From NCBI RefSeq assembly GCF_988242995.1, contig NZ_OZ547043.1: a stretch of DNA of 64,000 bases; one strand, written 5' to 3'. Each line of letters begins with the position of its first letter. The stretch's first letter is position 1. Below are positions 1,773-59,456 of the stretch, piece by piece. The position numbers were made by a program, and so were the translations under genes. The notes beneath the pieces are model-generated. The model had not been told where the DNA came from, ran no database searches, and saw only the letters and a list, made by a program, of their open reading frames with translations.

Positions 1773-3023
1773 TCAAGCTAAACCAATAAAGAACCCGGCA
1801 ATGGTCGCGCTCATCAGGTTGGAAAGCGTTGCTGCTGCCAGCGCCCGTAAACCAAGCTGGGCGATTTCCGGAGCACGTTTTGGCGAAATAGCCGAAAATG
1901 CCCCAACGACAACACCGATAGAACCAAAGTTAGCAAAACCACAAAGCGCAAAGGAGATAATCGCAATGGTTTTCACTTCCAGCGTGCCGCCCGTTTGCAG
2001 GTATGGGGAGAAACTCAGGTAAGCGACAAATTCGTTAATCGCCAGTTTCTGCCCAATCAGGCTACCCGCAAGGTTGGCATCACTCCAGTCCACACCCATG
2101 ATCCACGCCAGCGGTGCCAGCACATAGCCAAAAATACTTTCCAGAGAGGCATTGGCGAAACCAAACCAGCCGCCAATTCCGCCGATAATGCCGTTGATCA
2201 GCGCAATAATTGCGACAAACGCCATTACCACCGTCGCTACACCAGCGGCGATTTTCAACCCGGTCATTGCCCCTGTAGCGGCGGCTTCAATAATGCTTTT
2301 TGGCGGCGTTTCGCTGAACGACAGATTTTCAAATGTGACCTGCGAAGGCTCGGTTGCCGGGCTAAGAATACGTGCAAACAAAATACCACCAGGGATCGCC
2401 ATCAGCGATGCCGCTAACAGGTAGTCAATTGGTACGCCCATTCCGGCATAACCAATCATCATCGAACCGGCAATGGACGCCATCCCGCTACAAATTGCCG
2501 TAAATAGCTCGTTGCGATTCATGCGATCGATAAACGGTTTTACGATCGCCGGGATCTCATTTTGCCCGAGGAAAATAGTGGTAACCGCAACAAAAGATTC
2601 GATTTTGCTGATGTTGAGGGCTTTCTGAAAAATACTGCCAAGAATGCGGATTAGCAGCCCCATCACGCCAATGTAGTACAGCAGGCTGATGAGCGCAGTG
2701 ACGAAGATAATCGCCGGGAGTACGCGAAAGGCGAAGATAAAGCCCGCGCCATCAAACAGGACATCCATTTTCGGCCCGACCAATGAACCAAAAATAAAGG
2801 CACTACCGGCATCACTGTAAGACATCACTTTATGAACGCCTAATGCCGCCTGCTCTACCGCCCATTTTCCTGGTGGAAAATAGAGCATGATGCCGCCAAT
2901 GGCGATTTGTAGCAGCAGCGCGGCTCCAACCGTGCGCAAACTGATGCTCTTTTTATTCACTGACAACAAAAATGCTATTGCCAGTAACACCACCATCCCC
3001 ACAACACTTCTCATTATATCCAT
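1773..3023 (-). CDS. psuT: Pseudouridine/nucleoside transporter (NupC family)
   Basis: 416-aa ORF, multi-pass hydrophobic, synteny with psuG/psuK. Confidence 0.85.
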   Translation of the reverse strand: MDIMRSVVGMVVLLAIAFLLSVNKKSISLRTVGAALLLQIAIGGIMLYFPPGKWAVEQAALGVHKVMSYSDAGSAFIFGSLVGPKMDVLFDGAGFIFAFRVLPAIIFVTALISLLYYIGVMGLLIRILGSIFQKALNISKIESFVAVTTIFLGQNEIPAIVKPFIDRMNRNELFTAICSGMASIAGSMMIGYAGMGVPIDYLLAASLMAIPGGILFARILSPATEPSQVTFENLSFSETPPKSIIEAAATGAMTGLKIAAGVATVVMAFVAIIALINGIIGGIGGWFGFANASLESIFGYVLAPLAWIMGVDWSDANLAGSLIGQKLAINEFVAYLSFSPYLQTGGTLEVKTIAIISFALCGFANFGSIGVVVGAFSAISPKRAPEIAQLGLRALAAATLSNLMSATIAGFFIGLA

Positions 3024-4984: not shown

Positions 4985-5051
4985 AGCACGTCCTCTGGTA
5001 AAAAATTACCAACCCTGTCAATCCACAAGAATATAGATACTGCAAAGACGG

Positions 5052-5087
5052 TTTAAACATGTGTTCATATTTAAACATGTGCTCATA
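5052..5087. repeat. Tandem 18-bp direct repeat tttaaacatgtgYtcata x2 in psuK upstream region
   Basis: Seen directly in sequence; 17/18 identity between copies. Confidence 0.6.
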
Positions 5088-5366
5088 GTATGCATGTTTT
5101 ACGTAAAGTAAATTACCGCCAGAGAGGCAAAATGGGCAGATTTGAGCAGGCTCACAAAACGCGATTAAATGCCTGAATTATAAAAACGGGGAATTTGTGA
5201 CGGGATGCACAGAACAGGAACAATAAAAAAGGGCAGAAATTAATCTGCCCTTGAGGAAATAACCTTAGTGTTTGATGAAGGTTTCAGGTTTCTACTAAAA
5301 GATAAAACCATTTAAATTCATAAAATTACATTCACAAACCGGTCATTCTCTTTGCGCGCATCAAAT

Positions 5367-5395
5367 GTTACAGGGCAGGAAATTTCTGCCCTGTA
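5367..5395 (-). terminator. Rho-independent terminator downstream of fruA
   Basis: Perfect inverted repeat acagggcag..ctgccctgt just past the fruA stop. Confidence 0.7.
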
Positions 5396-5407
5396 ACACA
5401 CCTTTTA

Positions 5408-7099
5408 TTACGCTGCTTTCGCTACTGCGTCCACTTCCGGACGTTTCAGGAAGGCATAGGCCAGACCCGCCACCAGCGTACCGGCAATAATGGCTACCAG
5501 GTAACCCAGTACCGGCGTAATAGCGCCAGGGATCAGCAGAACAAACAGACCACCGTGCGGTGCCATCAGTTTCGCACCAATCGCCATTGAGATTGCGCCA
5601 GTCAGCGCCCCACCCACGATACAGCACGGCAGCACACGCATCGGATCACGAGCAGCAAACGGAATTGCACCTTCCGAAATGAAGCACAGTCCCAATACCA
5701 GAGCGGCTTTGCCACCTTCCTGCTGCGCTTTGTCGAATTTGCGACGCGCCACCATTGTTGCCAGGCCCATTGCCAGCGGTGGCACCATACCTGCCGCCAT
5801 AATCGCCGCCATCGGGCCATAGGTTTGAGTACTCAGCAGACCCACACCGAATGCGTACGCTGCTTTGTTTACCGGACCGCCCATGTCAGTACACATCATG
5901 CCACCGAGGATCGCCCCCAGCAGAACCGCATTCGCAGTCCCCATGGTCTGCAGCCAGTGAGTCAACCCTTCGAGAATGCCAGCAACCGGTTTACCGATCA
6001 GGTAGATCATCGCCAGACCGACCACCAGACTGGAAATTAGCGGAATGATCAGAATCGGTTTCAGCGCCTCCATACTCTGTGGCAGTTTCAATTGCGTACT
6101 GATTAACTTCGCAATGTAACCAGCCAGGAAGCCCGCAATAATACCGCCAATGAAGCCAGAACCAGTGCTGACCGCCAGCATACCGCCAATCAGACCCGGC
6201 GTGAGACCCGGACGATCGGCAATGGAGAAGGCAATATAACCTGCCAGTACCGGCACCATCAGCGCAAAGGCTGAACCACCACCAATCTGCATCAGCGCCG
6301 CTGCCAACGTACCCGGCTCTTTAAACGCTTCGATACCAAAAGCAAAAGAAAGCGCGATACACAGACCACCTGCAACGACCATCGGCAGCATGTAAGAGAC
6401 GCCCGTCAGCAAGTGACGATAAGCGCCTGCACTCTCTTTCTTACCTTCAGTGGTCGCCGTTTGAGCTTTGCCCGCCGGTTCATACGGCGTTGCTTCAGCA
6501 ACCGCTTTATCCAGTTCCTGCGCGGTTTTCTTCAGCGCCAGACCGGTAGAGGTGCGATACATCGGTTTACCAGCAAATTTCGCCAGATCCACTTCAATAT
6601 CTGCCGCCACAATCACCAGATCCGCTGCGGCTACTTCTTCAGGGGTGATTGCATTACCCGCGCCAACCGAACCACGGGTTTCAACTTTCACCCACCAGCC
6701 ACGTTTTTTCGCTTCGGTTTCAATGGCTTCAGCCGCCATAAAGGTGTGTGCTACGCCAGTCGGGCAAGCAGTCACCGCAACTACGCGTTTCGGACCGCTG
6801 GCGGCAACCGGTGCTGTCGCAGCGACCGGCGCAGTGTAAGGTTTTGCATGGCCTTTGGCTTCACTCAGGAACAGCTCAGGGTGCGCAACTGCCCGGGAAA
6901 TATCGCCCAGCCAAACATTTTTACCGTTCAGCGCGCTGTCGTTCGGGATGGAATCACCGAGAACAATCGCCATTTCAGCGTCGTTCGGATTGTCGATGAT
7001 TTCCAGTTTTGCTTTTCGCGCCGCCGCGCCCAGCAGGGTCTTCGCCATATAGGCGCGTGCCTGACCGAGATTAGCGTCAATAATCAGCAGCGTTTTCAT
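5408..7099 (-). CDS. fruA: PTS fructose-specific EIIB'BC component
   Basis: 563-aa ORF; fruBKA operon synteny. Confidence 0.9.
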   Translation of the reverse strand: MKTLLIIDANLGQARAYMAKTLLGAAARKAKLEIIDNPNDAEMAIVLGDSIPNDSALNGKNVWLGDISRAVAHPELFLSEAKGHAKPYTAPVAATAPVAASGPKRVVAVTACPTGVAHTFMAAEAIETEAKKRGWWVKVETRGSVGAGNAITPEEVAAADLVIVAADIEVDLAKFAGKPMYRTSTGLALKKTAQELDKAVAEATPYEPAGKAQTATTEGKKESAGAYRHLLTGVSYMLPMVVAGGLCIALSFAFGIEAFKEPGTLAAALMQIGGGSAFALMVPVLAGYIAFSIADRPGLTPGLIGGMLAVSTGSGFIGGIIAGFLAGYIAKLISTQLKLPQSMEALKPILIIPLISSLVVGLAMIYLIGKPVAGILEGLTHWLQTMGTANAVLLGAILGGMMCTDMGGPVNKAAYAFGVGLLSTQTYGPMAAIMAAGMVPPLAMGLATMVARRKFDKAQQEGGKAALVLGLCFISEGAIPFAARDPMRVLPCCIVGGALTGAISMAIGAKLMAPHGGLFVLLIPGAITPVLGYLVAIIAGTLVAGLAYAFLKRPEVDAVAKAA

Positions 7100-41023: not shown

Positions 41024-43615
41024 TCAGAACGACCAGACCACACCCGCCTGAGTATTCCACGGTGATTCTACCCCTGCGCCATTGCCATAACTGACTGACA
41101 AATGACCGCTTAACGTCGGGGTAAACGATGACCTTATCCCAGCCTGATAAACGCCACGGGTTCCAGCCACATCATTATTAAATTTGCCATCGTCATTAAC
41201 TTTCACCTGGTTAGAATCGGCGTATTCCTGACGCACGGCGGCTTTCAGCCAGGGTTCCAGCGTCGTACCGTTTTGCAGGTCCATGTGATAGCTTACCGCC
41301 GTTCCCGCTTCAGCGCGTAATATCCGGGTATTTCCCACATCCGCGCGCATGCCGTTTGATAACGTGTAGTCCTGACCATCTGTGGTAAAGCCGGTAAAGG
41401 CCAGATAGGGTCTAACACTCCACAATCCGTCAACCCAACGGAACCCGCTCTCAACATGAGCACCCGCGCCGTTACTATTGTAATCGCCAAACGCTGTTGC
41501 CCCATTACTCATCTTGCCATGGATGGTGTTGGCAAAACGGTCAACTTTCACCACCCCATCAACATAGGCACCGTTCTGATGCTCCCAACCGGCATAAGCC
41601 CCCAGGGTGTAGCTATCGACATTGCCTTTGCCGCCGCGATCAAAACCAATATCAGAATGAGAGTAACCAAAGAACAAGCCGCGAATTGTACTGCTTTCTT
41701 CACGGGAGAAACGGCTATCGATACCGAGCGTCAGCCCCGTCAATGTTTGCTCAAAGCCAGCTCCCGCATCAGTGGTCACGTTGTTGCGGGTGTTAATTGC
41801 CGAACTCCACATCGCCGTATCGTAATTAACGCCTTTTACGCTACCAAGACGCTCACGCACGGTGTCCAGTTCTGCATCAAATACCAGCGGTTGTGCTGCC
41901 GCCATATTCAGCATATCAGTGGTTGAAGGGGTAATTTGCGCGCGATTCTCTGCGAGGCTCCAGCTATGGTTGCCATTATCCAGCAAGGTATATTCATACG
42001 TACCGATATCAACAACGCCTCCGGCATTGCCCAACGTAAATGCAGCATCACCGCCGCCCGTTGTTACCAGTGTAAGGCTATCACCTGCTGCCGGGCTGGC
42101 ACCGGTGTCCGTAACGAATATTTTGAAATCACCTGTTGCCTGACCGGTGACGTTGAGCTGATCGCTCTGATGATTAGCCATATCGGTACGCATATAAAAA
42201 TTGCCGTTTCCCGATAGGGTATTGGTGGTCAACGTAGTGAAATTTTCCGCACTTGCCGTCACAGATGAACGAGTCACTGGCTCAGCCATCATAATCACAT
42301 TTGCGCCAGACATCGCAAGGTTGGCTAAGTTGAGGCGAGTGTTTTGGTTCGTCGTAGTGATATCGGCAATGATGGTCCATGCGCTATTTTCGAGCGAAAC
42401 ATCCGCTTTGCTGGTATCCACGGCTCCATGCGTTCTAAAAGAAGCGCCCTCAGAAACCACTACCTTACCCACCAACATAGCGGGTGCATAATTTATTTGC
42501 GGCTTCATGACCTCAAGAATGCCATCATTCCCTCTGACTGAAACGTTAACCATCGTGCCAGCCCAGACATTAGCGCGGCCATTGTTGATAACCATATTTT
42601 CAGAGATGGCTTTAGAGGAATACGTTATACTTCCATTCTGATCTGATCGACCGAGATCATATACCGCATTTGCCTGCACTCTCGTACCAGTATCCTTTCC
42701 CAGCGATTGCATAGTGGCATGCTCATCAAGGATAGTGTCAATGGCCTGCGTGTCCTCCATAACAATAAGCCCGGAACCATCATCCAGCTCATAATTTTTT
42801 GACACGCCATCTTTTATACTAAATTGGCCTTTACTGTTTGTACCACTCACTTCCAGCGCATTCGTTGAGACAATTAATTTTCCGCCTGCTTTTTTATCAA
42901 CGCCAGTTGCAGTCCCGCCATCCATAACCTCCAGTAAGCCGCCACTATCCACAGTGGTATTATAAGCGAAGTCATTTTCTTCAACTCGCAAACTTCCGCC
43001 GTTTTCCAACAGCATATTATTAGCAATACCATCCTTGATATCGAACTGACCGAGACGGTTTGTTCCGAATACCTCCATGGCCCGGGTGGTTGTTTTAATC
43101 GCACCGCCTGCTTTCTGATCTACCGCAAATGCTAATCCCCCCTCTTTAACCTCCAGTAATCCTCCCTTTTCGATAGCGGCAAAGACGGTAATCCCATCTT
43201 TTTCAATAATTAAGCGCCCGCCTTTAATGGTAGTATCATTCGCTGCGCCATAAACCTGTAGCACACCATTATTGAGGGTAGTCTGGTTTGCCGCGCCACC
43301 CATTTGAACAATTTGATAACCATCATTTAATACTGAGTATTCTGCGGTGCCATTCATTTCAATGTACTGATACCCGCCGTTAATTTCAGTATTACTACTT
43401 ATACCAAATTCTTTAATATGCTGTTCTCCGCCAGGATTGATTTTCGTATTATTGGCGGTCCCATAAACCAGCTGGATATCTTTTTCCAGGACAACACCAT
43501 CAACTGTCTCACCATACTCAACTGTTGATGCCAATGCTATGGGTGAATATAACGCTGTAGCCACCAGAACAGATATTGCGGAACGACAAAGAGAAACAGA
43601 ACCAGATTGATGCAT
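41024..43615 (-). CDS. yejO: Autotransporter adhesin YejO, apparently intact
   Basis: 863-aa ORF; N-terminal signal-like segment; repetitive passenger; C-terminus ...AGVVWSF typical of autotransporter beta-barrel. Confidence 0.8.
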   Translation of the reverse strand: MHQSGSVSLCRSAISVLVATALYSPIALASTVEYGETVDGVVLEKDIQLVYGTANNTKINPGGEQHIKEFGISSNTEINGGYQYIEMNGTAEYSVLNDGYQIVQMGGAANQTTLNNGVLQVYGAANDTTIKGGRLIIEKDGITVFAAIEKGGLLEVKEGGLAFAVDQKAGGAIKTTTRAMEVFGTNRLGQFDIKDGIANNMLLENGGSLRVEENDFAYNTTVDSGGLLEVMDGGTATGVDKKAGGKLIVSTNALEVSGTNSKGQFSIKDGVSKNYELDDGSGLIVMEDTQAIDTILDEHATMQSLGKDTGTRVQANAVYDLGRSDQNGSITYSSKAISENMVINNGRANVWAGTMVNVSVRGNDGILEVMKPQINYAPAMLVGKVVVSEGASFRTHGAVDTSKADVSLENSAWTIIADITTTNQNTRLNLANLAMSGANVIMMAEPVTRSSVTASAENFTTLTTNTLSGNGNFYMRTDMANHQSDQLNVTGQATGDFKIFVTDTGASPAAGDSLTLVTTGGGDAAFTLGNAGGVVDIGTYEYTLLDNGNHSWSLAENRAQITPSTTDMLNMAAAQPLVFDAELDTVRERLGSVKGVNYDTAMWSSAINTRNNVTTDAGAGFEQTLTGLTLGIDSRFSREESSTIRGLFFGYSHSDIGFDRGGKGNVDSYTLGAYAGWEHQNGAYVDGVVKVDRFANTIHGKMSNGATAFGDYNSNGAGAHVESGFRWVDGLWSVRPYLAFTGFTTDGQDYTLSNGMRADVGNTRILRAEAGTAVSYHMDLQNGTTLEPWLKAAVRQEYADSNQVKVNDDGKFNNDVAGTRGVYQAGIRSSFTPTLSGHLSVSYGNGAGVESPWNTQAGVVWSF

Positions 43616-57161: not shown

Positions 57162-57650
57162 ATGAAGACCATTCTACCTGCAGTATTGTTTGCCGCTTTC
57201 GCCACCACCTCCGCCTGGGCGGCAGAGAGCGTCCAGCCACTGGAAAAAATCGCGCCTTATCCGCAAGCTGAAAAAGGCATGAAGCGTCAGGTGATTCAGT
57301 TAACCCCGCAAGAAGATGAATCTACCCTGAAAGTAGAACTGTTAATCGGTCAGACGCTGGAAGTCGATTGCAATTTGCATCGTCTCGGCGGGAAGCTGGA
57401 AAGCAAAACGCTGGAAGGCTGGGGCTATGATTATTATGTCTTTGATAAAGTCAGTTCCCCGGTTTCGACGATGATGGCCTGCCCGGATGGCAAGAAAGAG
57501 AAGAAATTTGTCACAGCGTATTTGGGTGATGCCGGAATGCTGCGTTACAACAGCAAGCTGCCGATCGTGGTGTATACGCCAGACAATGTGGATGTGAAAT
57601 ACCGCATCTGGAAGGCGGAAGAGAAAATTGACAACGCGGTAGTTCGCTAA
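57162..57650 (+). CDS. eco: Ecotin (periplasmic serine protease inhibitor)
   Basis: 162-aa ORF with signal peptide; sequence recognised. Confidence 0.9.
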
Positions 57651-57669
57651 ACTGCCGTGAAGTGCTCCA

Positions 57670-57795
57670 CCCCGTAGGTCAGATAAGGCGGTTACGCCGC
57701 ATCCGATCTAACGCCCAAGCCGGTTGCCTGATAAGACGCTGGCGCGTCTTATCTGCATACGCCACATCCGGCATACCATGCCGGATGTGGCACAT
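57670..57795. repeat. REP/BIME cluster between eco and mqo
   Basis: Palindromes cctgataagacgctggcgcgtcttatc and gccacatccggcat..atgccggatgtggc. Confidence 0.7.
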
Positions 57796-57797
57796 CA

Positions 57798-59456
<1,659 letters not shown>

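Follow-up and report, generated by a model that had tools for sequence, protein, structure and literature searches.

REP/BIME palindromes in three convergent intergenic gaps of an Escherichia coli genome segment and a single BIME-2-type unit between eco and mqo

The gap between the convergent genes eco and mqo carries a series of palindromes and raises the question of whether these belong to the known REP/BIME family of E. coli or represent a structure of another kind, and which role they might play for the two adjoining transcripts. We addressed this question in a stretch of DNA of 64,000 nucleotides, which is called the window in the following. An initial annotation had recorded classical REP-type palindromes at three sites of the window, between eco and mqo (57670-57795), after rplY and between yeiL and psuT, and had regarded them as expected elements that should not be mistaken for novel structure.

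Genomic setting and the REP unit between eco and mqo

In several E. coli strains from swine, for example K_EC180, the stretch 57300-58100 around the eco-mqo gap is found with 100% identity, while K-12 MG1655 shows 95.7%; hence, the window belongs to E. coli but not to K-12. The genes that border the three sites were taken from ORF calls and from the RefSeq annotation of matching records.

57162-57650, + strand, eco
57798-59444, - strand, mqo, stop codon at 57798-57800
stop codon at 28489-28491, + strand, rplY
28630-29637, - strand, yejK, stop codon at 28630-28632
1007-1705, + strand, yeiL
1773-3023, - strand, psuT, stop codon at 1773-1775

All three sites are extragenic and lie in the gaps of the convergent pairs eco/mqo, rplY/yejK and yeiL/psuT. 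The convergent setting assumed in the initial annotation is confirmed for each gap by ORF calls and annotation, and folds and inverted repeats place a palindrome at each of its three positions. A motif scan of the whole 64 kb found no REP beyond these sites. A 64-aa GTG open reading frame (57662-57856), which crosses the REPs into the 3' end of mqo, was taken as spurious. In the K-12 RefSeq annotation REP repeat_region features were looked for and none is listed, also not in the control region 5000-6500, in which GenBank annotates REP1; since the control region is likewise devoid of a REP feature, the missing annotation in K-12 RefSeq is uninformative.

The window also contains an island of approximately 9 kb (~31978-41000) after the tRNA-Pro(GGG) gene at 31901-31977. 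According to the annotation of matching records, its genes code, among others, for an integrase, a DUF927 protein, ProQ/FinO and SSB. Two Rfam matches (34287-34363 and 34388-34475) were obtained, for C4 antisense RNA with 76 bits and for an isrK-like RNA with 47 bits. At least 80% of the region 31900-43000 is found in just 49 of 5426 E. coli genomes, and K_EC180, which equals the window in the eco-mqo region, lacks the island. It has the appearance of a small integrative element of the satellite type at proL.

The eco-mqo gap comprises 147 nt and folds into three successive hairpins on either strand, with free energies of -68.5 and -73.5 kcal/mol for the two strands (z = -6.1 and -5.8); none of 200 dinucleotide shuffles of the gap folded as stably. 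The following features are distinguished.

57674-57707, + strand, Y-type REP in the 'REP' orientation, left half of a single BIME-2-type unit
57708-57725, strand not assigned, short linker that joins the Y and Z2 REPs head to head and has 2 bp less than the linker of other one-unit strains
57726-57761, + strand, inverted Z2-type REP whose head GCCTGAT is on the left side, last and degenerate unit of the array
57761-57791, strand not assigned, perfect 14-bp hairpin with a 3-nt loop, inverted repeat 57761-57774 / 57778-57791

The Y copy was compared with the Y consensus GCCGGATGCGGCGTGAACGCCTTATCCGGCCTAC, as quoted in PMC12306157. As control, the entire 64-kb window was subjected to 100 dinucleotide shuffles, and the best match of every shuffle was recorded. 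The shuffles gave best matches with 10-14 mismatches (mean 13.2), the best in any of them being 24/34, while 57674-57707 agrees with the reverse complement of the consensus at 28/34 positions (6 mismatches). The consensus search proposed in the initial annotation was thereby successful for this copy and likewise for the REP at 28577-28610 (31/34). The Y REP keeps the 5' GTAG at 57674-57677 on the + strand, and the stem mismatch is present as an AA/GC internal loop in both Y copies of the window (57674-57707 and 28577-28610). The eco-mqo copy has its homologues in the Y copies of the K-12 array, and its stem differs from that of other one-unit strains by a G-to-A change resulting in an A-C mismatch. 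In an alignment with EC22, O157:H7 and ST131, the linker sequence CCGACATCT is changed to CCGATCT solely in the window allele.

The Z2 copy is more degenerate and owes its identity as a REP to its homology with the K-12 array: it matches the K-12 Z2 units of the locus at 27/36 positions (9 mismatches, shuffles at least 11). It contains a perfect 10-nt inverted repeat (57730-57739 / 57744-57753), and its stem mismatch is gone, because GATGCGACGC of other one-unit strains is replaced by GATAAGACGC, which pairs perfectly with GCGTCTTATC. The tail reads CTGCATAC in place of CAGGCCTAC, that is CATAC instead of CCTAC, whereby CTAC is lost. TTATCAG followed by CATAC, and not TTATCAGGCCTAC, forms the end of the last Z2 copy in all E. 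coli strains that were examined; the cryptic-clade Escherichia sp. E1V33 retains the canonical CAGGCCTAC tail in its last Z2 copy. In strain 4750, which is ST131-like, a 10-bp deletion aligned to window positions 57740-57755 removes the 3' arm of Z2 and leaves the terminal hairpin intact.

BIME-2 elements have been defined by y and z2 REPs in inverse orientation, a short linker, and tandem copies varying between strains (PMC3333891). The layout is found at eco-mqo, where Y (57674-57707) and Z2 (57726-57761) stand head to head across a linker of 18 nt, but the window contains exactly one unit instead of a tandem series. Judged from its sequence, the pair of Y and Z2 is one BIME-2-type unit. The initial annotation was to be given up if similarity to REPs was missing; for the Y and Z2 copies, compared with the REP consensus and with the K-12 array REP161, such similarity was found.

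Copy-number variation of the REP161 array

In K-12, the eco-mqo gap has a length of 714 bp; it is made up of six 113-bp units in tandem, with the terminal hairpin after the last one. Within each unit a Y REP (GTAGGTCGGATAAGGCGGTTACGCCGCATCCGAC) is followed, after a short linker, by a Z2 REP in inverse orientation (TGCCTGATGCGACGCTGGCGCGTCTTATCAGGCCTAC), and the array is annotated as REP161 (Harris et al. 2026, supplement). The number of units was derived from how far the matched places extend in a spread sample of 60 genomes, which was ranked and not random and is rich in K-12 derivatives, so that the following counts are not population frequencies.

span 793-805 bp, 1 unit, 38 genomes
span 1029-1031 bp, 3 units, 3 genomes
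span 1142-1144 bp, 4 units, 2 genomes
span 1241-1257 bp, about 5 units, 2 genomes
span 1368-1370 bp, 6 units, 13 genomes
span 1483 bp, 7 units, 1 genome
partial match, no unit count, 1 genome

The sequences of nine fetched loci confirm the presence of 1, 3, 4, 5, 6 and 7 units, and differences in tandem BIME copy number between strains have been described before (PMC3333891). Strain gb37, which is recorded as 'laboratory experiment' and has K-12-like coordinates, shows a span of 4 BIME units compared to 6 in MG1655; either two 113-bp units were lost on a laboratory time scale or the repeat was collapsed in the assembly. For annotators of non-K-12 strains, eco-mqo is a copy-number-variable BIME-2 locus (1 to 7 x 113 bp), and due to the variable number of units the gap length as well as the Rfam naRNA4 matches differ between strains.

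These Rfam matches lead to another interpretation, in which the eco-mqo unit is a gene for a naRNA4-type small nucleoid-associated RNA that binds HU and condenses the chromosome. The window positions 57677-57757 match RF02564 (naRNA4) along the entire model (positions 1-77) with 46.4 bits (E = 8.7e-7), all six K-12 units exceed the gathering score of 59.5 (61.9-76 bits), and REP325 RNAs have been reported to bind HU (PMC4550694). However, the window match stays below the gathering score, and no promoter-like site was found in or near the eco-mqo gap. Moreover, RF02564 merely models one Y+Z2 BIME-2 unit, that of REP325, hence a match to it shows BIME-2 homology and not naRNA function. A preprint from 2026, among whose authors is Adhya, the senior author of the original report, describes no measurable nucleoid compaction by REP325/naRNA4 and assigns it to the local 3'-UTR elements. 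Therefore, a naRNA4-type gene at eco-mqo is very unlikely; this interpretation adds nothing past BIME-2 homology, and the proposed nucleoid role itself is disputed by the 2026 preprint.

Hairpins outside the BIME-2 unit and the other two gaps

The right-hand palindrome of the eco-mqo gap (57761-57791) differs from the two REPs. It ends 6 nt from the mqo stop, and the stem in mqo sense begins 2-6 nt past this stop. In eco sense the hairpin is formed by 14 perfect pairs (-27.8 kcal/mol), in mqo sense by 18-20 pairs including two G-U (-29.5 kcal/mol). A T-run was sought on either side of it and none was found; the terminator scan of the whole eco-mqo gap likewise returned no terminator-like site and no T-run flanking any of the hairpins, hence intrinsic terminators of the canonical type are not seen there. 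The hairpin is present at the mqo locus in 5414 of 5426 genomes, and with a median of 2 places per genome at E<=10 it is a single-locus element and not a dispersed repeat. The REP head motif GCCGGATG occurs on both of its strands, and the hairpin is REP-like in that motif only. It was considered as a REP, since its arms resemble the head and tail halves of REPs (15/18), but its score of 12 lies inside the range of the shuffles, which have a maximum of 13-15, and it was therefore not filed as such. An exact-pattern scan across all species (one genome per species) gave 5 matches, one of them at mqo of Escherichia sp. E1V33, and the other four, in unrelated bacteria, were taken as chance matches of a palindromic pattern. 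At this exact-pattern stringency the hairpin is not a dispersed family; owing to the exact pattern, the scan says little on the conservation of the hairpin. The label of classical REP, which had been given to the whole of 57670-57795, consequently applies to Y and Z2 and has to be withdrawn for this single-locus hairpin.

The K-12 orthologue of the hairpin (2305063-2305108) is contained as row 365 in Table 16 of the preprint by Harris et al. (2026), which lists bidirectional terminators, for the convergent pair eco:mqo. The row gives an 18-nt stem, a 3-nt loop, -33.4 kcal/mol, REP161 and an overlap of 9, and the terminators of the table come from reference 47 of the preprint (Harris et al. 2026). 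Refolding of K-12 2305063-2305108 reproduces the value of -33.4 kcal/mol. Reference 47 is presumably the SEnd-seq study of Ju, Li and Liu (Nat Microbiol, 2019). From other rows, the last column of Table 16 was read as the number of nucleotides that overlap with an annotated REP, and on this reading the K-12 hairpin lies essentially outside REP161, with an overlap of 9 nt. In K-12, the 3' ends of the eco and mqo transcripts overlap on the mqo-proximal hairpin (Harris et al. 2026).

Variants of the locus were seen in the K-12-like strains ATCC 8739, PSS-16, HeN100 and 2017.04.03CC. In these strains CC is inserted into the left arm of the hairpin next to mqo (GCCACATCCCCGGCAT), which leads to a bulge in the stem, and their last Z2 copy also shows the perfect-stem variant GATAAGACGC, as in the window.

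The site between rplY and yejK consists of two separate elements.

28512-28536, + strand, intrinsic terminator of rplY, a GC hairpin with T-run and flanking A-run, upstream of the REP
28577-28610, + strand, single Y-type REP, 31/34 to the Y consensus with 3 mismatches

The REP folds as a single hairpin (-21.9 kcal/mol, z = -5.2), is identical in K-12, and carries GCAG at 28577-28580 in the position of GTAG, likewise in K-12. Its stem shows the compensated variant CCAGAT/ATCTGG. The terminator scan matched 28518-28530 followed by TTTTTTG, which is the sole canonical terminator near the rplY-yejK REP; the list of bidirectional terminators contains its K-12 orthologue (2282816-2282846) under rplY:yejK and places no REP within it (Harris et al. 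2026, supplement). The REP described in the initial annotation as lying after rplY does exist, but it is situated beyond the T-run terminator of rplY itself, by approximately 45 nt, and adjoins the end of yejK at a distance of 19 nt from the stop codon. Due to this position it is functionally more a 3'-end element of yejK. Based on its place between REP158 and REP160, it is presumably REP159. A naRNA4-like match at 28580-28662 (38.4 bits) was inspected for a second REP and discarded, because its second half is a palindrome in the coding end of yejK; this palindrome (GCCGCCGGACGTCCGGCGC, 28636-28662, within the 3' coding end) is not a REP. Upstream of rplY, the Rfam L25 ribosomal protein leader (RF03131) was found as expected at 28160-28185 with 46.9 bits, above its gathering score.

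In the gap between yeiL and psuT one element was identified.

1727-1767, strand not assigned, REP-derived palindrome, orthologue of REP158, ending 5 nt from the psuT stop

It forms a single hairpin (-25.4 / -27.1 kcal/mol, z about -5) with the head GCCGGATG on both arms, at 1730 (+) and 1757 (-). In the window the allele forms a palindrome of the head/head type, TTGCCGGATG...CATCCGGCAA, and its local score of 11 to the Y consensus is not significant compared to the shuffle maximum of 13-15. The K-12-type allele GCCGGATGCAACGCTTAATACGTTTTATCCGGTCTAC is a canonical REP with a local score of 17, and REP158 is named for psuT/yeiL (Harris et al. 2026, supplement). Judged from identity bands, each of the two alleles occurs in roughly half of the sampled genomes. 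The designation as classical REP is hence correct with regard to the orthology to REP158, but the window carries a variant allele, which fails the consensus search alone. In some strains, for instance O121:H19 FWSEC0006 (~220-345 of the fetched locus), an insertion of ~127 bp stands beside the hairpin, corresponding to window position ~1712, and the yeiL-psuT span is 428-430 bp with the insertion versus 301 bp. The inserted sequence (GTGAATCCCCAGGAGCTTACATAAGTAAGTGACTGGGGTGAGCG...) resembles an ERIC/IRU element.

With the three gaps described, the explanation can be weighed that the palindromes have nothing to do with REPs and are either common Rho-independent terminators or inverted repeats that arose by chance. 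It would be in line with the position of all sites at gene 3' ends and with the scores of the mqo-proximal and yeiL-psuT hairpins, which are not significant against the Y consensus. However, a T-run follows none of the hairpins, and the sole canonical terminator nearby is the separate rplY hairpin. Furthermore, matches of 31/34 and 28/34 were never reached in shuffles, and there is base-for-base homology to the REP161 array of K-12 and homology to REP158. For the Y and Z2 REPs this explanation is refuted, and as a whole it is extremely improbable.

Proposed function and comparison with known elements

Collectively, we consider it highly probable (roughly 0.9) that the elements are members of the REP/BIME family in three convergent gaps, which act most likely as RNA stem-loops at transcript 3' ends. 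According to the literature on such elements, the hairpins would be transcribed as 3' ends of the converging mRNAs and would fold into stable stem-loops, which might block 3'-to-5' exonucleases and/or promote a partial, largely Rho- or hairpin-dependent termination. Each transcript would then end in the gap rather than running antisense into its neighbour. REPs are known to be co-transcribed with the upstream gene, to stop 3'-to-5' exonucleases and to be able to act as partial Rho-dependent terminators, and REP325 in its operon is both a partial Rho-dependent terminator and a stabiliser of the upstream mRNA. The literature counts 355 annotated REP elements with about 584-697 units; approximately 60% of REPs sit between convergent genes, about 30% of the convergent gaps have one, and convergent pairs containing a REP correlate with higher expression of both genes. 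Moreover, 78 REPs lie within mapped bidirectional terminators, the eco:mqo row among them (Harris et al. 2026). These terminators and the overlap of 3' ends were mapped in K-12 with its six units, while the window strain has one unit. Since the hairpins lack a U-tract, the mapped 3' ends could also be exonuclease stops and not termination sites, and according to the preprint the effects of REPs depend widely on context, and terminal REPs do not in general alter how long an mRNA persists (Harris et al. 2026).

The distance to the stop codon might be of importance as well. REPs less than 16 nt from a stop codon are reported to lower translation via ribosome stalling (Liang et al. 2015, as cited in PMC12306157). 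The mqo-proximal hairpin (2-6 nt) and the yeiL-psuT hairpin (5 nt from the psuT stop) lie within this distance, and the Y REPs lie outside of it, with a distance of 22-23 nt to eco for one and of 19 nt to yejK for the other. As its stem begins 2-6 nt past the mqo stop, the mqo-proximal hairpin might be a ribosome-stalling element. It could even be a dedicated regulator, namely a bidirectional terminator without U-tract and/or a ribosome-staller that lowers Mqo, with the number of BIME units tuning eco and mqo; this proposal is improbable enough to be called speculative. If true, the variable BIME number would adjust the expression of eco and mqo in a manner that differs among E. coli lineages. 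A literature search for a link between mqo and REPs returned nothing relevant.

At the DNA level, Y/Z2 pairs are in addition known as substrates of TnpA-REP/RAYT and as preferred gyrase sites. This role, along with unequal recombination or slippage of the 113-bp units, would account for the range of 1-7 copies. In a stricter version, the elements matter mainly as DNA, that is as gyrase site and transposase substrate with selfish or architectural character and with no role for eco/mqo expression. BIME-2 elements contain more gyrase cleavage sites than expected, with a preference for Y REPs (PMC6379681). The REP-associated transposase TnpA-REP requires GTAG and the stem mismatch for binding and cleavage and cleaves a paired inverted REP (PMC3333891); the Y copy of the window has both features, and the number of units varies from 1 to 7 between strains. 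However, only one unit is present in the window, its Z2 partner possesses neither GTAG nor the stem mismatch, its CTAC being lost, and the preference of gyrase was demonstrated on part of the multi-copy BIME-2 elements, with eco-mqo not among the named loci (PMC6379681). Given the Z2 copy without mismatch and CTAC, the GCAG of the rplY-yejK REP and the yeiL-psuT palindrome without tail, a RAYT-dependent activity is doubtful for those copies. A DNA-level role is also compatible with a role at the RNA level and does not exclude it. An exclusive role as DNA is thus conceivable but on balance unlikely, and a function as 3'-end stem-loops is preferred.

All elements are of a known kind at known loci; the REPs are already catalogued as REP/BIME, and the mqo-proximal hairpin is a known hairpin of the terminator type. 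The view of the initial annotation that they are ordinary for E. coli and nothing novel is borne out by the K-12 orthologues of the eco-mqo and yeiL-psuT sites, which are named REP161 and REP158 in a published supplement. The one-unit allele, its eroded canonical features and the rearranged REP158 are strain variation of known elements. For genome annotation, which makes the outcome mainly bookkeeping, the palindromes should be masked as REP/BIME and not be reported as new structured RNAs. Eroded or rearranged alleles such as the one-unit Z2 and the yeiL-psuT palindrome are missed by a consensus search alone and are identified by comparison of the orthologous loci.

The closest known system is REP161 of K-12, which occupies the same locus with the same flanks and is homologous base for base in Y, linker and Z2; the truncated tail of the last Z2 and the terminal hairpin are shared as well. 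It differs by its size, with 12 palindromic units in 6 tandem 113-bp repeats over 714 bp in K-12 and one unit in 147 bp in the window, and the window allele is further distinguished by the 2-bp linker deletion, the G-to-A change in the Y stem and the repair of the Z2 mismatch to a perfect stem. The bidirectional terminator eco:mqo of K-12 agrees with the window hairpin in the loop and in the 14 core pairs. Its stem comprises 18 Watson-Crick pairs, whereas that of the window has 14 in eco sense and 18-20 with two G-U in mqo sense, and the mapping of 3' ends refers to K-12. REP158 of K-12 shares the gap, the left arm and the loop start (TTGCCGGATGCAACGCTTAATA) with the window; it possesses the tail arm TTATCCGG-CTAC (TCTAC), whereas in the window the sequence from the loop to the psuT stop is replaced and contains no such tail. 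Finally, REP325/naRNA4 (RF02564), the BIME-2 array of yjdM-yjdN, has the same Y+Z2 unit architecture as eco-mqo, but it is found at a different locus between tandem genes, whereas the eco-mqo unit is placed between convergent genes, is present as a single copy and scores below the gathering threshold.
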